Assembly: GCA_011046415.1 (NCBI GenBank)
Contig: DSAP01000090.1
Coordinates: 4,590-68,589, forward strand
Origin: a bacterium
Lineage (GTDB): Bacteria > Zhuqueibacterota > QNDG01 > JABMRT01
DNA length: 64,000 bases
Direction of reading: 5' to 3'
This document shows, piece by piece, positions 8,222 to 53,689 of the stretch. Within the stretch, counting starts at the first letter, position 1. Each line of letters opens with the position of its first letter. A program made the position numbers and the translations under genes. The notes under the pieces were generated by a model. The model did not search any database, was not told the origin of the DNA, and worked only from the letters and a program-made list of their open reading frames with translations.

Positions 8222-8283
8222 GGCGATCCTCCTTTCTTGCGGGAATGGTTCTTTTATCGTCACCGCTCCGGGATTTCTCCGCC

Positions 8284-8511: not shown

Positions 8512-8517
8512 AGCTGT

Positions 8518-20336: not shown

Positions 20337-20352
20337 TGGCACACAGGTTGCA
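20337..20352 (+). promoter_or_regulatory. sigma-54 (-24/-12) promoter of the hsp20 operon
   Basis: TGGCAC-ACAGG-TTGCA: perfect GG-N10-GC spacing and near-consensus flanks, about 50 bp upstream of the first Hsp20 start. Confidence 0.6.
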
Positions 20353-20832: not shown

Positions 20833-20839
20833 TCAGGAG

Positions 20840-21250: not shown

Positions 21251-21272
21251 AAGCATGAAAGGAGGGATTGCG

Positions 21273-21767
21273 ATGAAGATCAAAGAGCTGATTCCTGCGC
21301 AGTGGGGACGGAGTGAGGTGCCCGTCAGGCGGACGATGGACTCCAGTCCCCTCCTCGATTTGCAACGTGGAATGAATCGCATGTTCGACCAGTTTTTCGA
21401 CGATTTCACGGGGTCCCGGTTTCCGGAATCAGCCCGGAATGTCTATCCGCAGATCGACATCCGCGAAACCGATCAGGCCGTCGAGGTGTCGGCCGAATTG
21501 CCCGGACTCGAACGCGAAGATGTGGATATCTCGATCGCGGCAGACGTGCTGACAATCCGGGGCGAGAAACGGCAGGAGAAAGAGGAGAAAAACGGCGGAG
21601 TCCGTTATGTCGAACGCACCTATGGTGCATTCCGGCGCGAAATTCCGATCCGGGCCGAGATCGAAGTCGAGAAGGTGAACGCGAAAATGAAAAACGGCGT
21701 TCTGACCGTAACGCTGCCCAAGAAACCGGAAAGCCGGCGTATGGCCAGACGCATCGAAGTGCAATGA
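21273..21767 (+). CDS. Hsp20/alpha-crystallin small heat-shock protein
   Basis: AAAGGAGGG ribosome-binding site then ATG at 21273; VEVSAELPGLEREDVDI...NGVLTVTLPKK. Confidence 0.85.
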   Translation: MKIKELIPAQWGRSEVPVRRTMDSSPLLDLQRGMNRMFDQFFDDFTGSRFPESARNVYPQIDIRETDQAVEVSAELPGLEREDVDISIAADVLTIRGEKRQEKEEKNGGVRYVERTYGAFRREIPIRAEIEVEKVNAKMKNGVLTVTLPKKPESRRMARRIEVQ

Positions 21768-38182: not shown

Positions 38183-38758
38183 ATGGAAACCCGCCTACAG
38201 GTCCGTTCCTTCGATTCCCGGCTCTCGCCGGAAGAGTTCCGGGAGGTCCCGCGGAATCCCGTCTATCCCATCCTCGACAATCTCCGCAGCGCGTTCAATG
38301 TCGGTTCGGTGATCCGTACGGCGGATTGCATCCTCGCAGAAAAGATTTGTCTCTGCGGCTATACGGCCCACCCTCCACACAAAAAACTCGACAAAACGTC
38401 TCTGGGCGCCCTGCCTTATGTGCCGTGGGCGTATTACGAGACAACTTCCGAGGCGATTCGGGTGTATAAGGACCTGGGGGTTCCCGTCGTGGCGCTCGAG
38501 TTGACCAACCGAAGCCGGCTCATCTGGGAGTACCGGTTCCCCCTCCCGGTTGCGCTGGTTCTCGGCAATGAGGCGCTGGGCGTCTCACATGAGGCACTTG
38601 CCGTGGCCGACGACATCCTCGAGATCCCCATGCTGGGGTATAAGAATTCAATCAACGTGGCCGTAGCCTTCGGCATCGCGGCTTATGAAATTCAGCGTCA
38701 GCACTGGCAGCGGTTTGTGCCGCAGCTTGCGTCGAGGAAGGGGGAGGGGGAGAAATGA
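38183..38758 (+). CDS. SpoU/TrmH-family RNA 2'-O-ribose methyltransferase
   Basis: SPOUT motifs NVGSVIRTAD, LVLGNEALGV, IPMLGYKNSINVAVAFGIAAYE. Confidence 0.85.
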   Translation: METRLQVRSFDSRLSPEEFREVPRNPVYPILDNLRSAFNVGSVIRTADCILAEKICLCGYTAHPPHKKLDKTSLGALPYVPWAYYETTSEAIRVYKDLGVPVVALELTNRSRLIWEYRFPLPVALVLGNEALGVSHEALAVADDILEIPMLGYKNSINVAVAFGIAAYEIQRQHWQRFVPQLASRKGEGEK

Positions 38759-39167
38759 ATGTGGCCAGGGCATTGCGACCCGCGCGTCGTGTGTGTGAGG
38801 CAACGGCAGAGTACGGGCCGAGCCGGAACGAGATTGTGCTTTATCGCGCACCGGATGGAACCGTCTCGCTCGACATCCGACTTGAACGTGATTCAATCTG
38901 GCTGACACAGAAGCAGATGGCAGAATTGTTCATCACGGAGCGAAGCGTCAGTATCAAGCGTCTACGCAATGTCTTCATAACCGGCGAGTTAAAGAAGGAC
39001 TCAGTATGTGCATTTTTTTTGCACATACTGACGAAGACGGAAAAACCTACAATACAACCTTTTGTTATCTCGACGCCATCATTTCCGTCGGCTACCATGT
39101 CAATTCCAAGCGCGGCACGCAGTTTCGCATCTGGGTAACGCGCGTAGTTAGAAAGTATATCCTATAA
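38755..39167 (+). pseudogene. RhuM-family (virulence/prophage-associated) gene remnant, frameshifted at a T8 run and 3'-truncated
   Basis: N-terminal hallmark EIVLYRAPDGTVSLDIRLERDSIWLTQKQMAELF in frame 1. Continuation LDAIISVGYHVNSKRGTQFRIW is in another frame after the T8 run at 39013-39020. Ends about 180 aa short of full-length RhuM. Confidence 0.6.
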
Positions 39168-39276
39168 AGGTTTACACTGTCAATGAACGGCGGCTGAAGG
39201 ATCTCAGTCATCCCGTTTTGGTGATTGGGGAATCATAAAAGAATGATAATATAATCGACCAACCGAGGAGTGACAG

Positions 39277-40041
39277 ATGAAATCCCATTTTGAAAAACAC
39301 GTCCTGCGTCATCCTCCGTGGTATCCGATTTTAATCACCGCAACCCTTTTCTCGTTTTTGGGATGTCAACAATCCAGAAGGGAGAGCGCCATGCAGCAGG
39401 GAGAAGACCCGTATGTCAGACAAAGGCATGCGATGGTTTCAAAGCAGATCGCCGGCCGCGGGGTGAAGGATCCGCGTGTCCTGGCCGCGATGGAAAAGGT
39501 GCCGCGACATCTCTTCGTTCCCGACAACATCAGGTCGCACGCCTATGAGGACAGCCCCCTGCCGATCGGATACAATCAGACCATATCCCAGCCTTACATC
39601 GTGGCGTACATGACGGAGCAGCTTGTCCTGGAGGGCGACGAACGTGTTCTCGAGGTCGGTACGGGGAGCGGTTATCAGGCCGCCGTGCTGGCCGAACTGG
39701 TCCCTGAGGTGTATACGATCGAGATCATCGAACCCCTGTCGGTCACGGCACGGGAACAGATCGAGAAGGCGGGATTTGAGAACGTCCACTTCCGGGTCGG
39801 CGACGGATACCTGGGATGGCCGGAAGCCGCGCCGTTCGATGCGATCATGATCACGGCCGCTCCCAGGCAGATACCGGAAACGCTCATCGGCCAGCTCCGG
39901 GTTGGTGGAAGGATGATTGTTCCCGTCGGACAATGGCATCAGGAACTCCTCCTTATCACCAAAAAAGAAAAAGACTATTCCGTGAAGAAGCTCCTGCCCG
40001 TACGTTTCGTTCCCATGGTCCGATCCCGGTCTGATGAATGA
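39277..40041 (+). CDS. pcm: protein-L-isoaspartate O-methyltransferase with N-terminal lipoprotein-type signal peptide
   Basis: PIMT motifs (VLEVGTGSGYQAA, GDGYLGWPEAAPFDAI, GGRMIVPVG) preceded by a 40-aa extension MKSHFEKHVLRHPPWYPILITATLFSFLGC. Confidence 0.8.
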   Translation: MKSHFEKHVLRHPPWYPILITATLFSFLGCQQSRRESAMQQGEDPYVRQRHAMVSKQIAGRGVKDPRVLAAMEKVPRHLFVPDNIRSHAYEDSPLPIGYNQTISQPYIVAYMTEQLVLEGDERVLEVGTGSGYQAAVLAELVPEVYTIEIIEPLSVTAREQIEKAGFENVHFRVGDGYLGWPEAAPFDAIMITAAPRQIPETLIGQLRVGGRMIVPVGQWHQELLLITKKEKDYSVKKLLPVRFVPMVRSRSDE

Positions 40042-40195
40042 AACGACCGGCTTATCGTTTCAAGGCCGTTGTCCATATTCCCGATATCCCGGTCACGAAC
40101 CGGGATATCTTCCGGAGATGAAACATTATCGAGAAAATCCTGTAAAATATAATGGACTTATCAAAAAACTCTTAATCGAAGAAAGATCGGAAAAA

Positions 40196-40858
40196 ATGTC
40201 GCCTGCCGAAGGAAGAAAGTGGAGAAAGTCGGATTCGAACCGGATCATCGCCGGCGTCTGCGGGGGGCTGGCTGAGTATTTCAAGATCGATGCCACCGTT
40301 GTCCGTATTCTGTGGTTGGTTTCCATTTTTCTGAACGGCCTGGGTCTGCTCGCCTATCTGGTGGCGCTGGTGGTTTTGCCGGCCGCTTCGGATGATCCGG
40401 CGTCACGTGAAGGAGGCAGGAAATCCGGTTCCGGAGGCTGGCTTATTCTCGGTGTTCTGCTTATCCTCTTGGGTCTTTTCTGGGGGGTGCATAACTGGGG
40501 ATGGTACGCCGGGTTCCCCTGCCCGGGATTTACCCATTGGGGGAGGCAGGACTTCTGGCCGGTATTGCTGGTTGTCCTCGGTATTCTCTATCTGGTGCAT
40601 GTCCTCAAGGATTCGAAGGCCGGCGGCGGATCCGGCGGATCGTCCGGATCGACCAATACATCACGTTGGCCGTTTCATCGCACGACAGATGACCGGGTGA
40701 TCGGCGGGGTCTGCGGCGGACTGGCCCGGCATGTCCGCATCGATCCCACCCTGGTACGAATCGGAACCGTTGTTTTCGTACTGATGACGGGCGTCGTATT
40801 CGGCGTTTTGCTTTATGCGGCGGCCCTCGTCCTGATACCCGAAGAAAAGAAGGCATGA
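40196..40858 (+). CDS. membrane protein with two PspC domains
   Basis: RIIAGVCGGLAEYFKIDATVVRILWLV and again RVIGGVCGGLARHVRIDPTLVRIGTVVF, each followed by TM helices; start uncertain (40118 or 40196). Confidence 0.7.
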   Translation: MSPAEGRKWRKSDSNRIIAGVCGGLAEYFKIDATVVRILWLVSIFLNGLGLLAYLVALVVLPAASDDPASREGGRKSGSGGWLILGVLLILLGLFWGVHNWGWYAGFPCPGFTHWGRQDFWPVLLVVLGILYLVHVLKDSKAGGGSGGSSGSTNTSRWPFHRTTDDRVIGGVCGGLARHVRIDPTLVRIGTVVFVLMTGVVFGVLLYAAALVLIPEEKKA

Positions 40859-40885
40859 CCAGATGAAAAGATCTGGATTGGTTCC

Positions 40886-41428
40886 ATGAAAGAAGAAAAA
40901 CGTTCCATCATCCCCGGTGTCCTGCTCGTTTTGGCCGGTTTATGGTTGTTGTCACGCGATGTGATTCAACAACACGGTATCTGGGAACGCATTTATCCGC
41001 TTGTTATTCTGGTTTTTGCCGGATTTTACTTAATCGACTGGGTCCGCAGGAAAAAGGAGGACACCTTTTTCTGGGCTGTTTTCTTTCTGCTTACCGGCCT
41101 TTTCTATTTGTTGCGGAATTATGATTTAATTCCCTACCTCTATATCGAGGAGTACTGGCCGGTTTTTTTCCTTTTCTGGGGACTGGGTTATCTGGTACGT
41201 TTTTTTCTCCGTCCCGCCGAATGGAACATCCTGATTCCCGCCATCCTCTTCCTCTTTATGGGGGCCTTCTTTTTTTTACATGCGGCGGGTGGTGTTCTTG
41301 ATTTTCCCGATATTGAGATCGAGAAATACTGGCCCGCCGGTCTTATCGTCATCGGATGCGGGTTGTTGATCAGTGCATTATTCAAATCTTTAAAAAACAA
41401 TTCTGACCAGGGGCAGATTCGATCCTGA
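40886..41428 (+). CDS. polytopic membrane protein (LiaF-N-terminal-like/DUF5668-like), PspC partner
   Basis: 180 aa, five or six TM helices, Trp/Phe-rich; 27 bp after the PspC gene. Confidence 0.45.
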   Translation: MKEEKRSIIPGVLLVLAGLWLLSRDVIQQHGIWERIYPLVILVFAGFYLIDWVRRKKEDTFFWAVFFLLTGLFYLLRNYDLIPYLYIEEYWPVFFLFWGLGYLVRFFLRPAEWNILIPAILFLFMGAFFFLHAAGGVLDFPDIEIEKYWPAGLIVIGCGLLISALFKSLKNNSDQGQIRS

Positions 41429-41572: not shown

Positions 41573-44047
41573 TTGTCGATTTTCTTTAAAAAAGGAAAAG
41601 ATGCATCATTTGAAAAGGACCAGTCCCTTTCTTTCATTGCGTGGGGTGTGGGACAGGATTTCTATGCGGATGCCGTTCATCCCGAACAGCGCACCCAGAA
41701 ACTGCTCTCGGAGATACAGCGGCGTACTTTGGCCGATCAGGCACTGATTGCCGGTTCGAATTTCGACACTGAAACGCTCGAAATCCTGTATTGTGCCCCT
41801 CCCAAAGAACCTTCGCTTATCCAGCCGGATGTCATCCGGCTTTTGCTTGAGAAGGTATTCGTCGAAAATAAAATCCTCGATCTGAACGAATTCGCGGATA
41901 TCGATCCGGTCGTACGGTATCTGAAGGACAGTCAGGTTTCCTCGATTCTGATCTGCCCTCTCAATATCCACGAAAAAACCATCGAGGCGTTGATTGTCGT
42001 CAATTATTATGAGGGTCATGATAACCGGATGCAGGAGTTCATCCAATTCGTCTCCGCCACATTGGCCGTTTCGCTGCAGAACACGGGGCTCTATGCCATC
42101 CTCCATGACAAGGAAGAGGAAATTTCCGACTGGTCCGAACAGGTTGGCCAACGGATCGAGACCGACGCCAAACAATTTCTTGAAAAGGAATTTCAGTATT
42201 ACAATCTGTTTGAAGAAGCCCCCTATGGCATCATCGTCCATAGCATCGAAGGGCGTATTCTTGAGGCCAACCAGGCCGCCCGTCAGATTCTCGGGTATGA
42301 CAAAAAAGGCCTTTTAGAGAAGAAATGGTCGGATCTCGTCGAAGAAGACCTGGATGTCCGGCTGAATACTTTCTTTGCGGATATTTTGCGTACCCAGAAA
42401 GCCGGCACCCTCGAAATTTCGTTCATAAAAAAAGACGGAACACAGTTCTGGGCGGATCTCTGTTCTCAGCGGGTCAGGCTTCACGGAAAGATCGCCCTCG
42501 AGACCTTTATCCGGGATATCTCTCAGCAAAAGGTGCGAGAGGCGGAATTGCAGGACAAGCAAAATAAATATGAGGTTTTCGTCGAGTCGTCTCTGGTCGG
42601 TGCGTATGTGATCCAGAATGGACGCATCCATTTCACCAATGAGAAATTCGAAGAATTATGCGGATTTCCGAAAAAAGAACTCTTTGACAGTGAGTTTATT
42701 CAACTGATCGCCCCGGAAGACCGGAGCATGGTTTTGAGTCGCGAGATGCGCAGGGAGAAGGGTGATAGTGTTCCCGATCAATATGAAATCCGTTTTCTTA
42801 AAAAAGATGAGGAACGCTGGTGGGGCGAAGTGCGTTGCCGGAGGATCGAAGTGGATGGCAACCCGGCTATACTCGGTAATGTGATCGATGTCACCCAGCG
42901 AAAACGCCTCGAAGTTCAGCTTCTTGAAAGCCAGAAAATGGAATCCATCGGCACGCTCGCCGGTGGCATCGCCCATGATTTTAATAACCTCCTCGGCGGT
43001 ATCCTGGGATATGCATCGCTGTTGATGAGTGATATGCCCAAAGATCACATCTATTTTGAAGACATCCATACTATCGCAGAAACCGCCAAAAAGGCAGCGG
43101 ACCTTACCAACCGGCTCCTGGCCTTTGCGCGGGGCGGCAAATATCAGGTGACAGCGATCGACAGCAACCGAATTGTGGATGATGTGGTGGCCATTCTTTC
43201 CAGAACCGTCGACCGTTCAATCGCCATAGAAACCCATCTGGTAAAGAACTTATGGCATATCAAGGGGGATTCCCAGCAGATTCATCAGGCGTTTCTCAAT
43301 ATTTGTCTCAATGCGATCGAGGCCATGCCGGGCGGTGGAAAACTGATGATATCCACGGCGAACGTTATCCTGGACGAAGCGTTCGCACAGGCACAGATGG
43401 GGGGCAGTCCCGGTGATTACGTGCGGATTACCGTAAGCGACACCGGCATCGGCATGGACGAGAAAACCAGACGTCGGATTTTCGAACCCTTCTTTACCAC
43501 CAAACCCGCCCAGGCGGCCAAAGGCCTCGGACTCGCCATGGTTTACGGCATTGTGAAAAATCATGAGGGCGCAGTTCTTGTAGACAGCGTGCTGGGGAGC
43601 GGCAGTAAATTTACACTCTATTTTCCGAAATATACGGAGGAGGAGAGTCCGGAGCCTGAATCCGGTGAACCGGTTCTTTCTGCCAAAAAGGGGACAGTGC
43701 TGCTCGTCGACGATGAAGCGGTCATTCGCCGTGTGGCCAAACGGATGCTCGAGAGAGGGAACTATGAGGTGATTTCGGCCAAGGACGGCCAGGAGGCGCT
43801 GGCGATTTATGAAGAAAGACAAAAAGATATTCATCTGGTGCTGATCGACCTGATCATGCCGGGAATGAACGGGACCGAAACGGTTGAAAAGCTGAAGAAG
43901 ATCAATCCCGATATCAAAGTCATTTATACCAGCGGATACGGTCTCGGCGATCATCCCGAACTGCAACATCACAATGTGGACATGTTTATCCAGAAACCGT
44001 TTCAGACTGAAATCCTGATCGAGAAAGTCGCGCAGCTGCTTTCCTGA
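41573..44047 (+). CDS. hybrid sensor histidine kinase (GAF-like, two PAS, HisKA, HATPase_c, receiver)
   Basis: H-box IAHDFNNLLGGILGYASLL; N/G1/F/G2 boxes (NAIEAM, DTGIGM, FEPFFTTK, GLGLAMV); C-terminal receiver with phospho-Asp in VLIDLIMPGMNG. TTG start. Confidence 0.85.
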   Translation: MSIFFKKGKDASFEKDQSLSFIAWGVGQDFYADAVHPEQRTQKLLSEIQRRTLADQALIAGSNFDTETLEILYCAPPKEPSLIQPDVIRLLLEKVFVENKILDLNEFADIDPVVRYLKDSQVSSILICPLNIHEKTIEALIVVNYYEGHDNRMQEFIQFVSATLAVSLQNTGLYAILHDKEEEISDWSEQVGQRIETDAKQFLEKEFQYYNLFEEAPYGIIVHSIEGRILEANQAARQILGYDKKGLLEKKWSDLVEEDLDVRLNTFFADILRTQKAGTLEISFIKKDGTQFWADLCSQRVRLHGKIALETFIRDISQQKVREAELQDKQNKYEVFVESSLVGAYVIQNGRIHFTNEKFEELCGFPKKELFDSEFIQLIAPEDRSMVLSREMRREKGDSVPDQYEIRFLKKDEERWWGEVRCRRIEVDGNPAILGNVIDVTQRKRLEVQLLESQKMESIGTLAGGIAHDFNNLLGGILGYASLLMSDMPKDHIYFEDIHTIAETAKKAADLTNRLLAFARGGKYQVTAIDSNRIVDDVVAILSRTVDRSIAIETHLVKNLWHIKGDSQQIHQAFLNICLNAIEAMPGGGKLMISTANVILDEAFAQAQMGGSPGDYVRITVSDTGIGMDEKTRRRIFEPFFTTKPAQAAKGLGLAMVYGIVKNHEGAVLVDSVLGSGSKFTLYFPKYTEEESPEPESGEPVLSAKKGTVLLVDDEAVIRRVAKRMLERGNYEVISAKDGQEALAIYEERQKDIHLVLIDLIMPGMNGTETVEKLKKINPDIKVIYTSGYGLGDHPELQHHNVDMFIQKPFQTEILIEKVAQLLS

Positions 44048-44129: not shown

Positions 44130-44220
44130 TTTCGGTTAAGAGATCATGGATTCTCTGACTGTTAATGTGTTTTGATAAAGACGGCGGTGTTCAGCAGGAT
44201 GCTATCCGGAAACTTTGTCT

Positions 44221-46668
44221 ATGCAGATAAGTCCAGATAAAACAGAAATCTCGGATGGTCTTCTCTCCGAGCGGCTACTCGAAGAACTCTATTCGAAGGC
44301 AGATATCCTGTATTTTCTGCTGGACGATCAATTCCAGATTGTTTCATGCAATGTCACGGCACAGGAAAAAATGGGCCATGACAAAAAACAACTGGCCGGA
44401 AAAAAATTCCTCGATCTGGTTCCGAAAATCGATCAGGCCGATTTTGAGAAAAAACTCCAGATATGTGCGACCAAAGGTTATCTGCGACATTTCATCGCCT
44501 CGCTGCGCGACCATCACAACAAATCGATCGATGTCGGCGTCAACGGGTTGTTGATCGTTTCAGAGGATGGCGGTCAGTCACATTTACGGCTTTTTATCAA
44601 GGATATTTCGGAGCAGGTACGCAATGCACGACAGCGTCTCCTCTCCACCCAGATTCTGCAATATCTGACTCAAAAGCCAAAAGAGAAAGATGCCATTCGT
44701 TATCTGCTTCGTGAAATCTGGGAAAGCCGCCTCTCGACCGGTCTCGGAATCTTTCTTGAGGATTCCTTCGGCAAGAAATTTTCTCTCGGCACATGGGGGA
44801 ATCTCGGATCCAGTTCCGAGAATACGTTTTCCGAACAACCCGCATGGAATCCCCGTAAATGGACGCGGGTCCGGGATGCGGTCAGGGATATTTTTTCTGT
44901 CCGGTGGACGGATCACGGCAGTTTCTGGGTCGATTCCCTGTCCGATGTGGTTCTTGAGCTGGAAAATTTTCCGGAAAAGGATAATCTGCTCGCGTTGTCC
45001 GATTATGAATCCCTGGCCATCTTCCCCCTCAACACGAAGACCTATTCAGGCTATCTCGTTCTGACGCACACAGCCTATGGGCGCTGGGATCGTGAGGATG
45101 TCGAGTTCTTTGAGTCGCTGATTACATCCCTGTTGCTGCTCGAATCCGAAACTCCCATTGACGACGTAGCCTTTTCTGCACCCCAACCGACTGCGTTCCT
45201 CCAACAGATACCGTTTATCGGGGTGCTGTATATTCAGAAAGGCCGGATCCGGTTTGCCAACCCCTGGATGCATGAAGTCCTCGGTTTTTCGGAGGAAGAA
45301 TTCCTCGATAAACCGGTTCTGGATATCGTGGAACCGGCTTATCATGAAGTTGCCGAGAATCTGACGGTTGAGATCCGGTCTGAAGCGCATCATTCCCGGT
45401 GTTGGGAAATCGGATTCAGGGACAGCGAGGGCAAATCCCGGCTGACGGACTGTGTTGTCGCGCCCTGCGAGAAGGACGGATCTCAAATCTGGTACCTCAA
45501 CGCCAGGGAATCCGTTCAAAAAGACGAGGAAGACGAATCCGTCAAGGCCAGGAAACTGGAATCTCTCGGCACCCTGACAGACGGTATCGTGCATGATTTT
45601 AACAATGTACTGTCGAATCTAATGGGCTACAGTTCACTTTTAAGCGAAGAGGTTCCCAAAGACAGTCCTTATTACGAGGATGTTCAGGAGATCGCCAAAA
45701 CAAGCGAAAAGGCCTCCCAACTCACCAGCCGTTTGCTTTCATTCACCCAGGACAAACCCCATGTCGTCAAGGATCTGAATATAAACGGCCTTATTACCGA
45801 GGTGGCCGGGGTTCTCTCGCGGACGATCGAAAAAAACATCACGATCCAGGCTGAACTCGACGATCAACTCAAATGCATCGAGGGAGACGCCGGCCAGATT
45901 CAGCAGGCTTTTCTTCAGGTGGCATTCAACGCACGAGATGCCATGCCGATGGGAGGGAAACTGCGTTTTCAAACCCGCAACATGAGTCTCAGTGAAAATG
46001 CGGCCAAACATCAGAACGGTGCGAAATCCGGAGAATACGTCCAGATTATTATCAGTGATACGGGACAGGGGATGAACGCCAAGATCAGGGAGCAGGTTTT
46101 CAACGCCCAGTTCTCCACCAAAAACCAATCGGGACGTGGATATGGATTGACCCTTGTCCAGGATGTCGTCCAGAAGCATCAGGGATTTATATCGGTCTTC
46201 AGCGATATGACAAAAGGCACCATTTTTAAAATCCATTTCCCGGCCGCCGAGAAGACTGTGAGGGAAATCTCGAACCCCGTTCCTTATTCGCATGCTCACA
46301 CACGCGAGACCATCCTTCTTATAGAAGATCAAACGAAATTCCGTGAGAGTGCCATTAAGATGCTGAGTCATTACGGATACAAGGTGATCGGCGCAGAGAA
46401 TCCGAATGAGGCCATGGCGATCTACAAAAAATACATAAACCGAATCGATGTGGTCATTCTCCAGATGATTTCACCGGGTGTGGAGGTTCAGAAAATACTG
46501 GCCGCGCTTAAGAAAATCAACCCGGCGGTCCGTATTATCGCTTCAGCCAATCCGGGCGAAGATGCGTTAATAGATCCGCGTCTCCGAAAATATTTTGCAG
46601 GTTTTGTCCAGAAGCCTTTCGACCAACGCCTGCTTCTCCGCGAGATTCAGGGTGTCATGAACGCCTGA
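44221..46668 (+). CDS. hybrid-type sensor histidine kinase (PAS, HisKA, HATPase_c, C-terminal pseudo-receiver)
   Basis: H-box IVHDFNNVLSNLMGYSSLL; intact N/G1/G2 boxes (NARDAM, DTGQGM, GYGLTLV). The C-terminal receiver has Gln in place of the phospho-accepting Asp (VVILQMISPG). Confidence 0.8.
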   Translation: MQISPDKTEISDGLLSERLLEELYSKADILYFLLDDQFQIVSCNVTAQEKMGHDKKQLAGKKFLDLVPKIDQADFEKKLQICATKGYLRHFIASLRDHHNKSIDVGVNGLLIVSEDGGQSHLRLFIKDISEQVRNARQRLLSTQILQYLTQKPKEKDAIRYLLREIWESRLSTGLGIFLEDSFGKKFSLGTWGNLGSSSENTFSEQPAWNPRKWTRVRDAVRDIFSVRWTDHGSFWVDSLSDVVLELENFPEKDNLLALSDYESLAIFPLNTKTYSGYLVLTHTAYGRWDREDVEFFESLITSLLLLESETPIDDVAFSAPQPTAFLQQIPFIGVLYIQKGRIRFANPWMHEVLGFSEEEFLDKPVLDIVEPAYHEVAENLTVEIRSEAHHSRCWEIGFRDSEGKSRLTDCVVAPCEKDGSQIWYLNARESVQKDEEDESVKARKLESLGTLTDGIVHDFNNVLSNLMGYSSLLSEEVPKDSPYYEDVQEIAKTSEKASQLTSRLLSFTQDKPHVVKDLNINGLITEVAGVLSRTIEKNITIQAELDDQLKCIEGDAGQIQQAFLQVAFNARDAMPMGGKLRFQTRNMSLSENAAKHQNGAKSGEYVQIIISDTGQGMNAKIREQVFNAQFSTKNQSGRGYGLTLVQDVVQKHQGFISVFSDMTKGTIFKIHFPAAEKTVREISNPVPYSHAHTRETILLIEDQTKFRESAIKMLSHYGYKVIGAENPNEAMAIYKKYINRIDVVILQMISPGVEVQKILAALKKINPAVRIIASANPGEDALIDPRLRKYFAGFVQKPFDQRLLLREIQGVMNA

Positions 46669-46775: not shown

Positions 46776-46804
46776 TTGACAATCATCCCTGAAGGTTGTA
46801 TTAT
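46776..46804 (+). promoter_or_regulatory. sigma-70-like promoter (TTGACA-N17-TATTAT) for the leuA/cimA-like gene
   Basis: Consensus -35, 17-nt spacer, near-consensus -10; about 55 bp upstream of the start. Confidence 0.45.
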
Positions 46805-46861
46805 TTTTATTCTGCGGGGAATGACTCTGAAAAAAATCATTTTTTGTGTAGGGAAAATGCT

Positions 46862-48424
46862 ATGGCTGAAAAAGTGATGATCATGGACACCACATTGCGT
46901 GACGGTGAACAAATGCGCAATGTCAGTTATTCATCCGAAGAAAAACTCAGTGTCGCACGGATATTGCTCGATGAAGTCAGGGTATATCGCATCGAGATCG
47001 CCAGCGCCCGCGTCAGTGAGGGAGAACAAAAAGCCGCCCAAAAAGTGCTTCAGTGGTCCAAATCGGCCGGTTATCTCGACCGGGTCGAGATCCTCGGTTT
47101 TACGGATCATACGAAATCGGTCGATTGGATCGGCGGCATCGGCGGCAAGGTAATCAACCTGCTCGCGAAGGGCGACAGGCAGCATGCCGAAACCCAGCTT
47201 GGAAAAACCAAGGAAGAACATGTGGCGGATATCCTGAAGACGATCTCCTATGCGTCCGATCAGGGATTTATCTGCAATATCTACCTCGAAGCCTGGTCAC
47301 ATGGTATGATCCGATCGCGGGATTATGTCTATTATCTGATCGATGCGATCAAAGACACCCCCATTGTCCGATATATGCTCCCGGATACGCTCGGTATCCT
47401 GTCGCCGAGCCAGGTGGCCCAATTCACCCGGGATATGATCGACCGGTACGGTGACATCGGGTTTGATTTTCACGCCCATGATGATTACGGAGTCTCCGTA
47501 GCCAATACGCTCACCGCCGTGGAGAACGGTATCCGCTGCGTGCACACGACCATCAACGGCATGGGTGAGCGGGCCGGCAATGCGCCTCTGGATGAGGTCG
47601 TGGTCGGCATCCATGATTTTCTGAAAATGGAAACAGATGTCGATGAGAAACAACTTTACCATGCCAGTCAAACCGTATCGATTTATTCGAGCTGCCGTAT
47701 CGCATTCAACAAGCCGATTTCCGGTCCCAATGTGTTTACACAGACGGCCGGTATTCACGCCGACGGCGATAAAAAAGGGAACCTTTACTCGAGCCAGTTG
47801 CACCCCGATCGGTTTGACCGGGCCTATGAATACGCCTTGGGTAAATTGAGCGGAAAATCCAGCCTGGATTACAACCTCGATAAGATGGGCATCACACTCA
47901 GTTCCGCACAGAAAAAGAAAGTGCTTGAGCGTGTGATTCTGCTCGGAGACCGCAAGGAATCCATCACCGAGGCGGATCTGCCTTATATCATCTCGGATGT
48001 GCTTGAGACGCCGCAGGACAAGACGTTCGAATTCCTTTCATCCGTAATCGTGACCAGCATCGGGTTGAGGGCCGTGGCCGCGGTCAAATTGCGGTACCAG
48101 AATCCGGATACGCAAAAAACCGAGGAATGGGAAGAGAATGCCAGCGGCGACGGCGGCTATGATGCCTTTATGAACGCCATCCGGTCGATCGCAGGCAAGA
48201 TCCGGATCGAACTCCCGCGGCTGGCCGATTATACGGTTTCCATCCCGCCCGGTGGAAAAACCGATGCGCTGGTTCAGTGCGCCATCATCTGGGAATTGGA
48301 TGAACGGCGTTTTGTGACGCGTGGGTTGAATTCGGATCAGGTCCTGGCCGCCGCCGAAGCCACTGAGAAGATGCTGAATTTAATTACGTTACCCCACCGT
48401 TCTAAACAGAAGGCCGAGCCATAG
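46862..48424 (+). CDS. 2-isopropylmalate synthase / (R)-citramalate synthase family (LeuA/CimA)
   Basis: HMGL-like TIM barrel beginning IMDTTLRDGEQ, metal ligands HAHDDYG...HTTINGMGERAGNA, C-terminal LeuA-dimerisation/regulatory domain; about 520 aa. Confidence 0.8.
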   Translation: MAEKVMIMDTTLRDGEQMRNVSYSSEEKLSVARILLDEVRVYRIEIASARVSEGEQKAAQKVLQWSKSAGYLDRVEILGFTDHTKSVDWIGGIGGKVINLLAKGDRQHAETQLGKTKEEHVADILKTISYASDQGFICNIYLEAWSHGMIRSRDYVYYLIDAIKDTPIVRYMLPDTLGILSPSQVAQFTRDMIDRYGDIGFDFHAHDDYGVSVANTLTAVENGIRCVHTTINGMGERAGNAPLDEVVVGIHDFLKMETDVDEKQLYHASQTVSIYSSCRIAFNKPISGPNVFTQTAGIHADGDKKGNLYSSQLHPDRFDRAYEYALGKLSGKSSLDYNLDKMGITLSSAQKKKVLERVILLGDRKESITEADLPYIISDVLETPQDKTFEFLSSVIVTSIGLRAVAAVKLRYQNPDTQKTEEWEENASGDGGYDAFMNAIRSIAGKIRIELPRLADYTVSIPPGGKTDALVQCAIIWELDERRFVTRGLNSDQVLAAAEATEKMLNLITLPHRSKQKAEP

Positions 48425-48535: not shown

Positions 48536-49213
48536 ATGGATATTTTTGAAGGCAGACAGGCTATTCGTGAACGGCTGTTGTCTGATGCCACCCATCGCAT
48601 GAAAAATATCATGGGTGGGATCAGCGGTTTTGCGGCTTTGATTTTAAAAGATTTAGACGAAGGATCGCATCATTATCCTTTGGTCGAACGGATTCAGGAA
48701 AATGTCATTCGCCTCGATCAGTTCCTCCTGGATGTCATGACTTTGGTTCGGGAACGGACAATGTATTCCGAGACCATCGATCTGCCGAGTACAGTCAGGG
48801 ACGTGTGTGTGAATCATTATGCGGATCCGGCCGACGACAACCCTGACTATCCCTTCAAGATCGAATCATCTCCATCGAGAATTCCGTTCAGGGCCGATCC
48901 GTTACTCATACGAAACGGATTATATCATGCGCTTCAGATTGTGGATGCGCTTTCGAGTAAAATCGAAACACTTCGGATCGAATCCGATGACGCGGCCGTG
49001 TCATTGCGTTATATCTTTGTCTGTGACAAATCCCTCAATGCCTTAAAGGAAGATATTCTGGCCGGATTGGGCAGCATTGAATCCGTCGATATACAACTGT
49101 CTCTCGCAGTCTGTCTGAAATTGATGCGGATGCACCAAGGGGAAGTTCAGATCGACCATCTGGACGGAAAACGCTGGATTTTCCTTCTGCGGTTCAGTCT
49201 GAATGACAGATGA
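48536..49213 (+). CDS. histidine-kinase-like protein with H-box but degenerate ATP-binding domain (no sensor)
   Basis: DHp helix HRMKNIMGGISGFAALIL, but the downstream region lacks DxGxG (G1) and GxGLGL (G2); 225 aa; directly upstream of the NtrC-family regulator. Confidence 0.5.
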   Translation: MDIFEGRQAIRERLLSDATHRMKNIMGGISGFAALILKDLDEGSHHYPLVERIQENVIRLDQFLLDVMTLVRERTMYSETIDLPSTVRDVCVNHYADPADDNPDYPFKIESSPSRIPFRADPLLIRNGLYHALQIVDALSSKIETLRIESDDAAVSLRYIFVCDKSLNALKEDILAGLGSIESVDIQLSLAVCLKLMRMHQGEVQIDHLDGKRWIFLLRFSLNDR

Positions 49214-49354: not shown

Positions 49355-50728
49355 ATGGGCGCCGAACAGAAACGCATACTTGTCGTCGATGATGAAGATG
49401 TGATCAGGGAGCTTCTTTTCGAGATGCTTCAACGCAAATCGTACACCGTGGAAACCGCACCCACGGGCAAGGCCGCATTGCAGATGGCCGAGGAGAAGGC
49501 TTACGACCTGATCGTGAGTGATATCCGGCTTCCCGATGTGAGCGGAATGAAGATTCTCGACCGGCTCAAGAAGAAACAGCCGGATTTGGGCATCATTCTC
49601 ATCACGGCGTACGGCTCGATCAAGAACGCGGTGCGCGCCATGAAACAGGGGGCGTTCGATTATATCACAAAGCCCTTTGATCTGGATGAAATCGAATTGG
49701 TCATCGATAAGTATTTTGAATATCAGAATCTGGTCGTCGAGAACCAGTATCTCCGCTCGGAACTCGACAGGAAGTTCAGCTTCGAGAACATCGTCGGCGC
49801 CAGCGACCCCATGCAGCGTGTCTTCGATTCCATCCGCATGGTGGCCAGAAGCAGGGCCACGGTGCTGATTCAGGGATCCAGCGGCACAGGCAAAGAACTG
49901 GTGGCACGGGCGATTCATTACAACAGCGACCGCAAACACCGGGCTTTCATCACGACCAACTGCGCCGCGCTTCCCGAAGGACTGGTCGAAAGTGAACTGT
50001 TCGGCCATGAGAAAGGCGCATTCACCGGTGCCTATAGAACAAACATCGGGCGCTTCGAAATGGCCGACGGCGGCACCATTCTGCTCGACGAAGTCAGCGA
50101 AATCAGTCTGCCGCTTCAGGCCAAATTGCTCCGGGTCATCCAGGAGCGGGAAATCGAGAGAGTCGGAGGCGGGAAGCTCATTCCGGTGGACGTGCGAATC
50201 ATAGCGACCACCAACCGCAACCTGAAAGAGGAGGTCGAGAAAGATAACTTCCGTGCCGATCTCTTTTATCGGCTCAATGTGGTGCCGATCTATTTACCCC
50301 CGTTGTCCGAGAGACGCGAGGATATTCCCCTTCTGATCAAGTATTTCGTTCATAAATTTGCCGCAGAGAACGGGAGTCCCCTTAAATCCGTCTGCGAAGA
50401 GGCCATGCACATGTTGACCGAGAGAGATTGGCCCGGCAATGTCCGCGAAGTCGAGAACGCGGTGGAGAGAGCCGTGGTCATGAGCGGGCCGGACGTCAAT
50501 AACCTTGAATCCAAACATTTCTTTTTCTCGGATCAGTCCGAAGCCGCTTCTTCGTTTAAAATGGAGACCGGCCAGATGACGCTGCATGATATGGAGAAAA
50601 ACCTGATTCTCAAGACACTGAGAGAGAACGCGGATAATCGGACCAAAACGGCCGAGATTCTCGGAATCAGCGTACGTACGCTCCGCAATAAATTGAACGA
50701 GTACCGGGCCGACGGTATCACGGTTTAG
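49355..50728 (+). CDS. sigma-54-dependent response regulator / bacterial enhancer-binding protein (NtrC family)
   Basis: Receiver domain (phospho-Asp in DLIVSDIRLPDVSG), AAA+ sigma-54 activator domain (GSSGTGKELVARAIH, ESELFGHEKGAFTGA), C-terminal Fis-type HTH. Confidence 0.9.
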   Translation: MGAEQKRILVVDDEDVIRELLFEMLQRKSYTVETAPTGKAALQMAEEKAYDLIVSDIRLPDVSGMKILDRLKKKQPDLGIILITAYGSIKNAVRAMKQGAFDYITKPFDLDEIELVIDKYFEYQNLVVENQYLRSELDRKFSFENIVGASDPMQRVFDSIRMVARSRATVLIQGSSGTGKELVARAIHYNSDRKHRAFITTNCAALPEGLVESELFGHEKGAFTGAYRTNIGRFEMADGGTILLDEVSEISLPLQAKLLRVIQEREIERVGGGKLIPVDVRIIATTNRNLKEEVEKDNFRADLFYRLNVVPIYLPPLSERREDIPLLIKYFVHKFAAENGSPLKSVCEEAMHMLTERDWPGNVREVENAVERAVVMSGPDVNNLESKHFFFSDQSEAASSFKMETGQMTLHDMEKNLILKTLRENADNRTKTAEILGISVRTLRNKLNEYRADGITV

Positions 50729-50969
50729 CCTGAATCATCCCTTTCCTGAGGGATCTGGTGGAATTGAAAACCGAAGTTTGTGAATAGATGAGGGATTGGA
50801 TCGGGACTGAACCGTAACCGACTGTGGACTGTGCTTTTCCGGTTAATCAGGAAAAGGCAGGCCGAACAAAGCCGTATTTTTCACAATAAACCACGTTTCA
50901 AATTATAAACACACTGCACAGATCGGCAATTCTCTCCTGATCAATGGAAAGAAACCTTATCAGTGTTTT

Positions 50970-50984
50970 CTGATTCTGAATCAG
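50970..50984. promoter_or_regulatory. 15-bp perfect palindrome CTGATTC-T-GAATCAG, candidate enhancer site about 70 bp upstream of the 51050 sigma-54 promoter
   Basis: Perfect inverted repeat in a 400-bp AT-rich intergenic region. Confidence 0.3.
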
Positions 50985-51049: not shown

Positions 51050-51065
51050 TGGCATGGATGTTGCT
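51050..51065 (+). promoter_or_regulatory. sigma-54 (-24/-12) promoter for the receiver / REC-PAS-HisKA operon
   Basis: TGGCAT-GGATG-TTGCT with GG-N10-GC spacing, about 60 bp upstream of the 51124 start. Confidence 0.5.
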
Positions 51066-51123: not shown

Positions 51124-51492
51124 GTGGAACCGGTCAAACATGTGCTGTTTGTCGATGATGAAGAGGAAGTCCTGAAAATCCTTGTGGATTATTTTTCGGA
51201 TACCGGGTATGCGTTGCATGTGGCCACCGGGGCCGAAGATGCGCTCAGGATCATCGGAGAAACGCCGATCGATCTGGTTTTTTCCGATCTCCGGCTCAAG
51301 GACGGCCTCGGAACGGATTTGCTGAACACGGTTAAGAAGACATACCCGGGGGCTCTCCGTGTCCTCACATCCGGGTATCTGGATATTCGCTTCGGAAAAA
51401 TTCAGGAAGACCAGGTGGACGGTACCCTGTATCTATCCAAGCCCTGGAACCTGGCAACGCTGAAGACCCTTATCGCCCAGCGGATTGGATGA
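51124..51492 (+). CDS. single-domain response regulator (CheY-like receiver)
   Basis: DDEEEV acidic pocket, phospho-Asp in DLVFSDLRL, conserved Lys in SKPW; GTG start. Confidence 0.7.
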   Translation: MEPVKHVLFVDDEEEVLKILVDYFSDTGYALHVATGAEDALRIIGETPIDLVFSDLRLKDGLGTDLLNTVKKTYPGALRVLTSGYLDIRFGKIQEDQVDGTLYLSKPWNLATLKTLIAQRIG

Positions 51493-52564
51493 ACACGTGG
51501 CTCAGAAGAAGAAAATCGTTTTTATCGACAACAAATCGGCATATCGGAAGATCGCGAAAGAGGCATTTCAATCGACACCCTATGAATGTGTGATATGCAA
51601 GACGGGGCAGGACGGATTGAATACGATCGCCTCCGTGCATCCCGATCTGGTGGTTGTCGAGGCTTTTCCTCCCGACATGTCCGGGGAAGAGATCTATCTG
51701 CAGTTTCTCTCCAATCCGGAATACCGCAACCTGAGGAAAATCCCGTTTATCGTCCTGACCGAGAATGGACATGTGGACCGGTCCCGGCTCTACGGCATGG
51801 GGTTCAGCGCCTGTATGAGAAAGCCGTTTAAAGCCAGAGAACTGATCGAGTTTGTCGAGGATGCCCTGGTCTCCCATCAAATCAAAATGGAAGAGATGTA
51901 TTGCTGGGAAACCATCCGCGAGGCCAAGGATTTTCTGGAACGCGTCGTTGAGACTTCTCTCGATGCCATCGTGACGACGGACAACGGCGGTATCATTACC
52001 TATTGCAACCGTGCCTGCGAAGAAATGCTTGGTTACAGCTTTCAGGAATTGATCGGCAAACGTGTCAGTCAGTTTCTGGTTTGCGGCGCCTCGGAGCTCC
52101 TAAAAATCAGCGCCTATCTGCGCAAACGCAATCAACTTCAGAATTATAAGACCGTGATCATCGGGAACAGAAATCAGAAGGTCTCCATCAATCTTTCCCT
52201 CTCGACGATGCGTGATTCCGAGGGAAAAGTCATGGGCGCCCTGGGGATCGCGAAAGAGACCGGGGGTGAAAAATTTGCCGAATATGATTCCCTGGCTTCG
52301 GGCCGTCTCGCGACCGTAGTCGAAACCGCCGTAGCCGTCAATCACGCGGTGAACAATCCGCTGGTGCCGATACTCGGGAATGCCCAGTTCTTGCTCCAGG
52401 ACGACAGGCTGATGGACGAGGACATCCGCCGCCGGCTCCGCGTGATCGTCAAGAATGCGTTGCGGATCCGTGATATCACACAGAAGTTGGCCAGCATATC
52501 CCATCCCGTGACCAAGGAATATCTCAAGGGCACCCGGATGCTGGACATCGACGCATCGACCTGA
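51485..52564 (+). CDS. atypical receiver-PAS-HisKA protein lacking the HATPase_c catalytic domain
   Basis: Receiver with Glu instead of phospho-Asp (DLVVVEAFPPDMSG), PAS (ETSLDAIVTTDNGGIITYCNRACEEMLGY), HisKA H-box (VNHAVNNPLVPILGNAQFLL); ends about 70 aa after the His. Confidence 0.6.
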   Translation: MDEHVAQKKKIVFIDNKSAYRKIAKEAFQSTPYECVICKTGQDGLNTIASVHPDLVVVEAFPPDMSGEEIYLQFLSNPEYRNLRKIPFIVLTENGHVDRSRLYGMGFSACMRKPFKARELIEFVEDALVSHQIKMEEMYCWETIREAKDFLERVVETSLDAIVTTDNGGIITYCNRACEEMLGYSFQELIGKRVSQFLVCGASELLKISAYLRKRNQLQNYKTVIIGNRNQKVSINLSLSTMRDSEGKVMGALGIAKETGGEKFAEYDSLASGRLATVVETAVAVNHAVNNPLVPILGNAQFLLQDDRLMDEDIRRRLRVIVKNALRIRDITQKLASISHPVTKEYLKGTRMLDIDAST

Positions 52565-52573
52565 ACCATCCCT

Positions 52574-52604
52574 ATAAAATAACTGTATTTTATCCCCCTT
52601 TTTT
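52574..52604 (+). terminator. terminator-like hairpin with C5T6 tail after the REC-PAS-HisKA gene
   Basis: ATAAAATA-ACTG-TATTTTAT then CCCCCTTTTTT; the stem is all AT, so it is weak. Confidence 0.3.
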
Positions 52605-52672
52605 CTTGCATTTTATGGGTACTTTCAGTAAGTTTTATCTCTGGAATTCTGTTTGACTTTGAGGAAAAGAAT

Positions 52673-53689
52673 TTGAAGGGCAGAGTAATCCTGGTTGTTT
52701 TTTATTTCCTGATTTCGGGAAATACGGTAACCGGTCTGACGGTGGGGAAATACGCGGGAGATTTCATGGCTGTGGGTGTCGGCGCCAGGGCGCTCGCCCT
52801 CGGAGGCGCTTTCACGGCCGTTGCAGATGATATTTCCGCAGGATACTGGAACCCGGCCGGTCTGTCGCGGCTTTCTCATGTCCAGGTGATGATGATGCAC
52901 GCCGAACGGTTTGGGGGGATTGTGAATTGGGATTTCATGGGAGTCGGGCTGCCGCTCCGGGGCGAATCCGCGGTTGCCCTTGGCCTGTATCGGCTCGGGA
53001 TCGACGGGATCCCCCTGACCCGGTTAAGGGATCCAAAACGGGAAATGGGCGATATCTATTTCGACGAATCCGGGAGGCGGCTTCAAAATGTGCCTTATGC
53101 CTATAAATACACCAGTCCCAATGATCTGGCACTTGTCGGTTCCTACAGCTCAAAGTTGGATGACAAGATACGGATCGGATTGAACGCCAGGCTGATTCGT
53201 CGCTCGGCGGATGTCTATGAAGCATGGGGAATGGGTTTCGACGCCGGTATCCTTGTTCATCTTGAAAACCGATGGCAAGTCGGAGCCATGATTCGGGACG
53301 CCACCGGTACGCTGCTGGCCTGGAACGGAGGACGGAAAGAATGGATTCTGCCCAGATTGCAGGTGGGTGTCGGTTATCCGTTCCAGGCCCGTTCGTTCTC
53401 CTTTCTCCCCATACTCGATGTGGCCATCCATTTCGACAATACCGTGCAAACCACGTTCAAGATGGGACGGGTAAGCATGGAGATCATGGGAGGCCTTGAA
53501 ATCTGTTACCAGAACCGAATCGCTTTGCGGTTCGGTTCAAACCGCGGTGCTTTGACGGCCGGTACCGGTTTCCGGATCGCTTTCTTTTCTGTGGATTATG
53601 GTTTTCAGACCCATTCGGAACTCGGACTCACACACCGTGTCTCGCTCACGATAACGGATATTCGGGATAAGCTCAGTCAAAACCGTTAA
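52673..53689 (+). CDS. PorQ/PorV-family (FadL-like) outer-membrane protein, T9SS-associated
   Basis: Signal peptide; N-terminal hallmark GARALALGGAFTAVADDISAGYWNPAGL; 338 aa beta-barrel-like. Confidence 0.55.
   Translation: MKGRVILVVFYFLISGNTVTGLTVGKYAGDFMAVGVGARALALGGAFTAVADDISAGYWNPAGLSRLSHVQVMMMHAERFGGIVNWDFMGVGLPLRGESAVALGLYRLGIDGIPLTRLRDPKREMGDIYFDESGRRLQNVPYAYKYTSPNDLALVGSYSSKLDDKIRIGLNARLIRRSADVYEAWGMGFDAGILVHLENRWQVGAMIRDATGTLLAWNGGRKEWILPRLQVGVGYPFQARSFSFLPILDVAIHFDNTVQTTFKMGRVSMEIMGGLEICYQNRIALRFGSNRGALTAGTGFRIAFFSVDYGFQTHSELGLTHRVSLTITDIRDKLSQNR

Follow-up and report, generated by a model that had tools for sequence, protein, structure and literature searches.

A gene in a 64,000-nucleotide stretch of bacterial DNA (assembly GCA_011046415.1, contig DSAP01000090.1, positions 4,590–68,589 of the forward strand; hereafter the window, whose own positions we use throughout) encodes the core of a histidine kinase from which the catalytic (CA) domain is missing. 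Its product, which we call the target, consists of a receiver, a long α-S helix of the coiled-coil type, a PAS domain, and a dimerization and histidine phosphotransfer (DHp) hairpin, and ends in a short tail. It is a full-length member of a family of cytoplasmic proteins of about 355 residues, with more than 100 homologues (349–372 residues) that are 27–84% identical to it and found in at least two named phyla, in which the whole ATP-binding domain has been removed and the phospho-His box is invariant; the sources include candidate division KSB1 and Calditrichota. Non-catalytic relatives of two-component proteins are common in genomes, and few have a known mechanism. The target is most likely a protein that removes or shuttles phosphate rather than one that generates it.

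A kinase core that ends after the DHp domain

The first-pass annotation of the window read the target as a receiver–PAS–HisKA protein with the domain order of a kinase minus its catalytic domain. Pfam, an AlphaFold2 (AF2) model, and a profile of the DHp region all bear this out. Pfam matched Response_reg to residues 11–124 (36 bits), PAS to residues 150–257, and HisKA to residues 285–335, the last with 23.3 bits, under the 26.9 cut-off. There was no Pfam match to HATPase_c, and none to the Hpt domain (PF01627) at E ≤ 0.01. NCBIfam models gave only partial matches far below threshold, of which AtoS was the best over the PAS–DHp part, followed by NtrB; no curated family therefore covers the target. 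Its existing database names, “hybrid sensor histidine kinase/response regulator” (NCBI, for the identical protein) and “PAS domain S-box protein”, are corrected by the present analysis.

The AF2 monomer model had a mean predicted local distance difference test score (pLDDT) of 78.5. The receiver (residues 9–113) scored above 90 and was followed by a helix (117–156), a PAS fold (161–258), two DHp helices (269–304 and 312–336), and a β-hairpin (343–353). The pLDDT of the DHp domain was low, at 50–77, as expected in a monomer model of a dimerization domain. Foldseek matched the PAS domain to LOV and NifL PAS domains, only at the level of the fold, and no LOV-type NCRFL cysteine motif was seen on reading the target PAS sequence; we therefore rejected a LOV or flavin-binding identity.

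The true start codon is probably GTG 51497, giving a product of 355 residues, because the closest homologue (P0002, 84% identical and 355 residues long) begins at the equivalent GTG. An ATGA-type overlapping start like those of loci L001 and L003 was ruled out: in the window the ATG at 51489 lies in another frame, which leaves TTG 51485 or GTG 51497. The 8-nucleotide overlap first described with the preceding CheY-like gene holds for the TTG start only. The likelier GTG start leaves a 4-nucleotide gap behind the CheY-like stop codon (TGA, 51490–51492), and with both starts the two genes abut.

The short protein is the full-length form

To find relatives of the target we searched a collection of 5.8 billion proteins, which yielded 130 at E ≤ 1e-5. 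Most of these (107) are 340–380 residues long, and those not cut by contig ends measure 346–372 residues, with one outlier of 437. The 107 full-length members, which we call the KSB1-type set, are the basis of all residue counts below. We also searched 1.84 billion cluster representatives exhaustively with HMMER and the full-length alignment. Multi-PAS proteins dominated the top of that list, from which we picked out further single-stretch matches of 352–361 residues. A profile search added homologues at 27–43% identity. All of these (the wide family) have the receiver–PAS–DHp layout and the C-terminus of the target. HATPase_c was absent from all 130 relatives and from the wider homologues listed.

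Between the target and P0002 the ratio of nonsynonymous to synonymous substitution rates (dN/dS) was about 0.04, with dS saturated. The proportion of nonsynonymous differences was 0.139 in the receiver, 0.085 in the linker and PAS domain, and 0.032 in the DHp domain and tail. The target is under purifying selection, and its DHp domain and tail are the most constrained part.

We give next to no weight to the possibility that the target is a truncated pseudogene, or an assembly artifact, of an ordinary hybrid or Rec-controlled kinase. The NCBI name of the identical protein and the sub-threshold HisKA score would suit such an origin, but the length and C-terminus are identical in more than 100 independent assemblies, which come from a number of sources, the dN/dS ratio is low, and just 108 bp, holding no CA remnant, separate the target from the next gene. 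The concordant lengths of the homologues and the lack of HATPase_c across the family rule out a truncation, and the spacer (52565–52672) rules out a frameshift: every frame of it contains stops, and the CA domains of the neighboring kinases, used as tblastn queries, matched nothing there better than E 0.24. Neither of the two findings that would have refuted the initial claim of a short protein, HATPase_c in its homologues or a frameshifted CA domain downstream, was made.

An invariant H-box without a kinase residue

A profile of the C-terminal 98 residues of the family matched the solved DHp domains of ThkA, ZraS, and LvrB (E 9e-6 to 4e-5). The H-box of the target reads VNH(287)AVNNPL. His287 is encoded at 52343–52345, 72 residues ahead of the stop rather than the 70 first counted; the early stop itself stands. 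The assignment of this residue as the phospho-His is supported by its conservation, since His287, together with Asn290, Asn291, Pro292, and Leu293, is invariant in 107 of 107 members.

The position after the histidine (H+1) varies. It is Ala in 93 members, including the target (Ala288), and Glu in the other 14; in the wide family the box is H-E-I-N-N-P-L, with Glu at H+1. Position H+4 is Asn291. In HisKA kinases, an acid at H+1 is needed only for kinase activity and Thr or Asn at H+4 only for phosphatase activity (Willett and Kirby, PMC3510030). By this comparison the H-box of the target appears to have lost the kinase residue and kept the phosphatase residue. Having no CA domain, the target should also lack autokinase activity, as it could not autophosphorylate in cis from ATP. 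Set against a HisKA kinase, then, it has the DHp hairpin with its His and H+4 Asn and lacks the CA domain and the H+1 acid; set against a Spo0B/ChpT-type protein, it has the hairpin and His and lacks the C-terminal pseudo-CA domain. The target lies outside three classes: histidine kinases (no CA domain), the Spo0B/ChpT type (no pseudo-CA domain), and histidine phosphotransfer (HPt) proteins (no HPt fold).

The DHp domain is nearly invariant inside the KSB1-type set, and the sample comprises only two deep clades. Residues invariant in both the KSB1-type and the wide sets include Pro295 in helix 1, Asn324–Ala325 in helix 2, and Tyr346 in the tail. Pro295 (52373–52375) is a second proline, three residues past the usual helix-1 proline of HisKA domains (N-N-P-L-x-P), at a classical receiver-specificity position. 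We did not see such a proline in LvrB, ZraS, ThkA, or the neighboring kinases.

Only 23 residues follow DHp helix 2. Comparing them with kinase sequences, we read this tail (P-V-x-K-E-Y-x-x-G-x-x-M-L-D-I) as a probable remnant of the CA domain, its first β-hairpin, in which case the deletion would have taken everything past that hairpin.

A receiver that has lost its metal-binding Asp

The first-pass annotation had also pointed to Glu where the receiver should carry its phospho-acceptor Asp. This is true of the window copy: in DLVVVEAFPPDMSG (residues 54–67), Glu59 (GAG, 51659–51661) occupies the acceptor position, the DD pair is D15–N16, and T92 and K113 are retained. It is not a family trait. 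The acceptor is Asp in 91 of the 107 members (85%), including the 84%-identical P0002, against Glu in 8, Asn in 5, and Ser in 3, and we therefore rejected Glu59 as a hallmark of the family.

What the KSB1-type set has commonly lost is instead the metal-binding Asp at the second position of the DD pair. The first position (15) is Asp in 105 of 107 members. The second (16) is mainly Ser (45), Gly (27), or Asn (11), with only four Asp and one Glu, and is therefore non-acidic in 102 (about 95%). Thr or Ser is present at position 92 in 102 members and Lys at position 113 in 105. The second residue of the DD pair is the Asp that binds the metal directly, and a pseudo-receiver has been defined as a PF00072 match without at least one of DD1, DD2, D, T, and K (Bourret et al. 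2025, PMC12632262). By these sequence-based criteria the target and the KSB1-type receivers class as pseudo-receivers, because the metal-binding DD2 Asp is lost in about 95% of them. The wide-family receiver is canonical (DD, D, T, K). Glu59 itself may be a phosphomimetic-type residue, by analogy with the LvrB receiver, in which D56E is phosphomimetic and constitutively active (PMC13269768).

A conserved six-gene signaling cluster

The target closes a cluster of six genes whose order is shared by KSB1-type loci: hybrid kinase 1 (about 825 residues), hybrid kinase 2 (about 810), a 210–248-residue protein, an NtrC-type activator (457), the CheY-like receiver (122), and the target. At least 12 distinct loci had enough flanking sequence to judge this order, and all of them agree. 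The targets in these syntenic loci are 42–68% identical to that of the window. The CheY-like gene and the target are predicted to be co-transcribed.

The third protein of the cluster, 225 residues long in the window, is a pseudokinase of a different kind. Its family has an invariant H-box, D-x-x-H-[KR]-x-K-N-x-x-G. A Foldseek search of the Protein Data Bank (PDB) with its AF2 model matched whole kinase cores, those of HK853, WalK, ZraS, and CpxA (E about 1e-10); ChpT and Spo0B were not among the best 50 matches. We use the label ChpT-like for it provisionally, on the basis of its modeled fold and its missing nucleotide-binding boxes rather than a specific match. The gene abuts the activator gene or sits within about 140 nucleotides upstream of it (15 loci). 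The protein evolves fast, with 25–32% identity between loci, which explains why a word-indexed search returned just six matches; we took its orthologues from synteny instead. To judge from its sequence, this protein is a better candidate than the target for the His-phosphotransferase that serves the hybrid kinases. It would be a ChpT/Spo0B-like pseudokinase outside Alphaproteobacteria and Firmicutes.

The window copy of the cluster has peculiarities of its own. The receiver of hybrid kinase 2 (residues about 700–811) reads VVILQMISPG, with Gln at the phospho-Asp position, where 12 of 13 orthologues have Asp. A gene resembling LeuA or citramalate synthase (HMGL-like, LeuA_dimer; 46796–48424, +) lies between hybrid kinase 2 and the pseudokinase; no other locus examined has such a gene there. 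In this lineage the cluster seems to be undergoing drift or rewiring, because the Gln in kinase 2, Glu59 in the target, a degenerate second enhancer site (described below), and the inserted gene occur together in one genome.

The cluster carries a single sigma-54 enhancer–promoter unit

A sigma-54 promoter (TGGCAT-N5-TTGCT) had been predicted from the window alone, and it holds up well: an element occupies the equivalent position in 21 of 21 loci examined. In the window it ends 58 nucleotides before the CheY-like start, and in 20 of 20 loci with a CheY-like gene the −24/−12 element lies 49–154 nucleotides before that gene. At locus L020 the CheY-like gene is missing, and the enhancer and promoter stand directly ahead of the target gene. 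The pattern had two matches in the 64 kb of the window against 0.06 expected. The only other one, TGGCACACAGGTTGCA (20337–20352, +), lies 49 nucleotides upstream of three consecutive Hsp20/α-crystallin genes (20401–21767, +).

Upstream of the promoter, 20 of 21 loci contain two 13-bp sites of the form GGNAAW-N4-NCC, spaced 19–23 bp apart and often a perfect palindrome, GGCAAAGCTTGCC. Site 1 sits 111–125 nucleotides upstream of the −24 element across loci. Shuffled controls gave 0.008 loci with two such sites. In 626 kb searched on both strands, each KSB1-type locus had the tandem sites plus promoter a single time, and just two stray tandems turned up outside these units. We infer that the adjacent activator binds these 13-bp sites. 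The 15-bp palindrome noted earlier does exist at 50970–50984, but it is not conserved: it was absent from all 20 orthologous upstream regions, which have the tandem sites instead, and we rejected it as a conserved activator site. The autoregulatory loop proposed along with it is plausible only if the target protein acts back on the activator, a step that we can only infer.

Distant relatives close regulatory blocks in flagellar clusters

In Calditrichota and other lineages, a homologue of the target closes a regulatory block inside flagellar gene clusters (loci L004, L035, L037, and L038, with the homologue at about 8001–9080 or 10001–11065). The order there is FlhA-FlhF-FlhG-FliA, and further on RsbW-like ATPase, STAS, GAF, and the homologue. 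After the homologue come a sigma-54 promoter and then flgF-flgG-flgA-flgH-flgI-flgJ-flgN-flgK-flgL. The RsbW-like ATPase, a HATPase_c_2 protein of 147–155 residues, is encoded two genes upstream of the homologue. Literature searches that were not aimed at the question brought up no part played by such a homologue in the regulation of flagella.

A further distant locus, L036 (5008–9074), combines an activator 55% identical to that of the window with a target homologue of 28% identity. The activator gene is followed by the same enhancer half-site, GGCAATTTCTTCC, and by a sigma-54 promoter, TGGCACAGCATTTGCG, under which stand fliA, a GAF gene, and the homologue; csrA lies immediately beyond them. 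That so distant a locus has a related activator, a half-site, a sigma-54 promoter, and a homologue shows that the target family has long been tied to sigma-54 and to this lineage of activators.

A proposed role in draining phosphate

We propose that the target is a DHp protein induced by the activator and gated by its own sensor domains, and that it either dephosphorylates a receiver or recovers phosphate from one; we put the probability of this at roughly 45%. The hybrid kinases would pass phosphate via the 225-residue pseudokinase to the activator, and the phosphorylated activator would switch on the CheY-like gene and the target gene. The DHp dimer of the target would then dock a phosphorylated receiver. 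Our leading candidate for this partner is the activator, because the DHp domain is of the NtrB/AtoS/ZraS type, two distant lineages link the family to the activator, and L020 does without the CheY-like gene; AtoS, NtrB, and ZraS all partner sigma-54 activators. The CheY-like protein comes second, on account of a gene that abuts the target gene.

The docked receiver would be drained either by Asn291-assisted hydrolysis, as by a kinase-minus, phosphatase-plus transmitter, or by back-transfer onto His287, and either route would produce negative feedback. The PAS domain and the receiver (here a pseudo-receiver with Glu59) would gate this draining. A protein with two input domains would more likely have a regulated activity than be a passive shuttle. 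When separated from their CA domains, the DHp domains of EnvZ and NtrB keep phosphatase activity.

Several points weigh against this proposal. The invariant His is dispensable for HisKA phosphatase activity and indispensable for phosphotransfer (PMC12632262), and its 100% conservation fits phosphotransfer at least as well. Glu is kept at H+1 in the wide family and in 13% of the KSB1-type set. At the helix-1 specificity positions H+8, +11, and +15 we read P, G, and F in the target and G, G, and L in both the 225-residue protein and hybrid kinase 1. If the 225-residue protein serves the activator, the target may serve a different receiver. Because the loci showed no enhancer–promoter unit other than theirs, the CheY-like protein and the target could even form the output of the pathway and act on the product of some gene elsewhere, in which case they would not be a feedback device. 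Finally, the pLDDT of the DHp model is low (50–77), and for every member of the family the mechanism is one proposed from sequence.

The alternative that survives best is a forward histidine phosphotransferase in the manner of Spo0B, ChpT, or PhyT, which would carry phosphate from a receiver (that of a hybrid kinase, or the CheY-like protein) to His287 and on to a terminal regulator such as the NtrC-type activator. The target had indeed first been called a free-standing phosphotransfer module. It is a kinase core without a catalytic domain, as that name implies, but phosphotransfer is just one of several readings, and one that we consider rather unlikely, because the 225-residue protein is the more obvious phosphotransferase: the cluster already holds this ChpT-like protein beside the activator gene, with H-box specificity residues matching those of hybrid kinase 1. 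That His287 is invariant in all 107 members and in the wide family speaks for forward transfer, in which the His cannot be bypassed (PMC12632262), as do the canonical receiver of hybrid kinase 1, which has no HPt domain, and the adjoining gene for a canonical single-domain receiver, which could have a role like that of Spo0F or SdrG. There are precedents in Pak–SdrG–PhyT–PhyR (PMC5898713) and in RedD to RedE (PMC2755868), where non-autophosphorylating DHp proteins are fed by a single-domain receiver. L020 dispenses with the CheY-like partner, though, and the target, standing under the activator's own promoter, would not be needed for the first activation barring basal expression. Spo0B, ChpT, and HPt shuttles also have no input domains and the target has two; together with the H-A-x-x-N box, these appear to point more to a regulated phosphatase or to back-transfer.

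The target might instead be a phosphate-independent modulator, forming DHp heterodimers with the hybrid kinases or the 225-residue protein, or sequestering a receiver, with no chemistry at His287. A frameshifted ChrS pseudokinase heterodimerizes with HrrS (PMC9491836), the pseudo-histidine kinase DivL regulates CckA, and RetS–GacS offers a further parallel; the extreme conservation of the DHp domain and of a non-catalytic tail would fit an interface with several partners. A strictly invariant H-x-x-N-N-P-L box is not expected without phosphoryl chemistry, however, and the His is missing in about 0.9% of HisKA domains, so that it does get lost when unneeded (Bourret et al., PMC12632262). We regard this reading as distinctly improbable.

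With slighter expectation still, the family can be seen as an ancient class of regulated DHp proteins tied to one sigma-54 activator lineage, flagellar in Calditrichota-like lineages and re-used in KSB1, in which the vestigial tail and Pro295 dock a domain, catalytic or pseudo-catalytic, that another polypeptide provides. That domain might be the CA domain of a hybrid kinase, the 225-residue pseudokinase, or an RsbW-like ATPase. If this were true, the family would be a naturally split, sensor-gated kinase/phosphatase whose halves are separately regulated.

We think it very unlikely that the target is a split kinase in the plain sense, with His287 phosphorylated in trans by a CA-type domain from a hybrid kinase of the cluster or from the RsbW-like HATPase_c_2 protein of the flagellar-type loci. 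Isolated CA domains of EnvZ and NtrB can phosphorylate their own DHp domains in trans in vitro. The H+1 Glu, needed only for autophosphorylation (PMC3510030), is kept by the wide family, but H+1 is Ala in 87% of the KSB1-type set. The HATPase_c_2 gene two genes upstream in flagellar-type loci would offer a partner there; RsbW-like genes, however, adjoin STAS genes, which encode their ordinary substrates, and are absent from KSB1-type loci, where the CA-like domain of the 225-residue protein is without any nucleotide-binding box.

Comparison with known systems

The nearest characterized protein is LvrB of Leptospira (Rec–α-S helix–DHp–CA; PDB 8vc9; PMC13269768), which like the target has an N-terminal receiver joined to the DHp domain by a long helix and is the third-best solved-structure match of the target's DHp profile. 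Its H-box, HEINNPL, is the one found in the wide family, whereas the target has HAVNNPL. LvrB has a functional CA domain and autophosphorylates; the target has no CA domain. The target also differs from LvrB in the PAS domain that separates its helix from its DHp domain and in the loss of the metal-binding Asp of the receiver.

Spo0B (Bacillus) and ChpT (Caulobacter; PMC3433190) resemble the target in idea: they are kinase-derived, do not autophosphorylate, and carry their phosphorylatable His on a DHp-type hairpin, and they work with hybrid kinases or single-domain receivers. Both retain a pseudo-CA α/β domain at the C-terminus, and neither has input domains. The target is the reverse, with no pseudo-CA domain and with a receiver and a PAS domain, and the 225-residue protein fits the Spo0B/ChpT type much better. 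The pairing of PhyT with SdrG (Sphingomonas, PMC5898713) and of RedE with RedF and RedD (Myxococcus, PMC2755868) recalls the gene pair seen here, in that a non-autophosphorylating kinase-like protein is matched with a single-domain receiver. Such a protein takes phosphate from a receiver on its His, dephosphorylates a receiver, or does both (PMC5898713, PMC2755868). They are functional analogies only: both belong to other DHp subfamilies or contexts, with no receiver–PAS–DHp-only layout and no sigma-54 control. PhyT is membrane-bound and HisKA_2-like, and RedE retains a CA-like region.

The H-box of the target also has a counterpart in the laboratory. E-to-A mutants of CrdS and HK853, which have lost the H+1 acid and kept Asn or Thr at H+4, are kinase-minus and phosphatase-plus (PMC3510030); the target has both features in its natural sequence. 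Those mutants, like the isolated DHp domains of EnvZ and NtrB, are engineered, whereas the state of the target is natural, conserved, and accompanied by input domains. In the KSB1 branch, a pseudo-receiver and an H-box signature for kinase-minus, phosphatase-plus behavior that was defined by mutagenesis are found in one natural protein. The target keeps a strictly invariant His and H-box, unlike DivL, which lacks the phospho-acceptor His; RetS keeps its CA domain. With DivL, RetS, and ChrS_CA-fs (PMC9491836), the target shares the standing of a catalytically incompetent kinase relative in a two-component network.

The target family is undescribed, large, and cleanly defined, and belongs among the pseudo-kinase and phosphotransfer relatives; its design is not unprecedented in principle. 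A compact syntenic cluster with a defined enhancer and promoter makes it a tractable system, and one that bears on how a DHp domain alone may route or drain phosphate, on the roles of pseudo-receivers, and on feedback in sigma-54 relays.

Features and flanking genes

The features of the cluster are collected in Table 1.

Table 1 Features of the target gene and its cluster in the window.
Feature	Position	Strand	Remarks
Hybrid kinase 1: two PAS, HisKA (HDFNN box), HATPase_c, canonical receiver	41573–44047	+	CckA-like; all boxes; no HPt domain
Hybrid kinase 2: PAS, HisKA, HATPase_c, receiver	44215–46668	+	Phospho-Asp replaced by Gln in this genome
225-residue pseudokinase: DHp with invariant His (H-[KR]-x-K-N) and CA-like fold	48536–49213	+	N, G1, and G2 boxes lacking; ChpT/Spo0B-like
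NtrC-type sigma-54 activator: receiver, AAA+, HTH_8	49355–50728	+	Presumed activator of the promoter
Enhancer site 1, GGCAATTCTCTCC	50925–50937	+	125 nucleotides before the −24 element
Enhancer site 2 position, GGAAAGAAACC	50946–50956	+	Degenerate here; intact in 20/21 loci
15-bp palindrome, CTGATTCTGAATCAG	50970–50984	+	Window only; not in orthologous loci
Sigma-54 −24/−12 promoter, TGGCATGGATGTTGCT	51050–51065	+	Pattern match; in 21/21 loci
CheY-like single-domain receiver: canonical DD, D, T/S, K	51124–51492	+	Abuts the target
Target gene: receiver, α-S helix, PAS, DHp, short tail	51485–52564	+	359 residues from TTG 51485
Target receiver domain, residues 9–125	51509–51859	+	Pseudo-receiver in this copy; Pfam, 107-member column counts, AF2
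Target connecting helix (residues 117–156) and single PAS domain (157–258)	51833–52258	+	Pfam, AF2, Foldseek
Target DHp hairpin, helices 269–304 and 312–336, H-box VNH(287)AVNNPLVPILGN	52289–52492	+	AF2, 107-member counts, profile match
Target C-terminal tail, residues 337–359, ending in HPVTKEYLKGTRMLDIDAST, and stop codon	52493–52564	+	Conserved; Y346 invariant in the wide family; AF2 hairpin 343–353 at low confidence

The gene next after the target (52673–53689, +) encodes an outer-membrane protein of the PorV/PorQ family (type IX secretion). About half of the KSB1-type loci have a PorV-like gene behind the target, and the rest have unrelated genes there; we therefore rejected a link to type IX secretion as part of the module. 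Upstream of hybrid kinase 1 (38183–41428, +), the window encodes a SpoU methylase, PCMT, a PspC-domain protein, and a LiaF-like membrane protein. These genes are partly syntenic with L001 and L003, and the conserved neighborhood therefore exceeds the six signaling genes.

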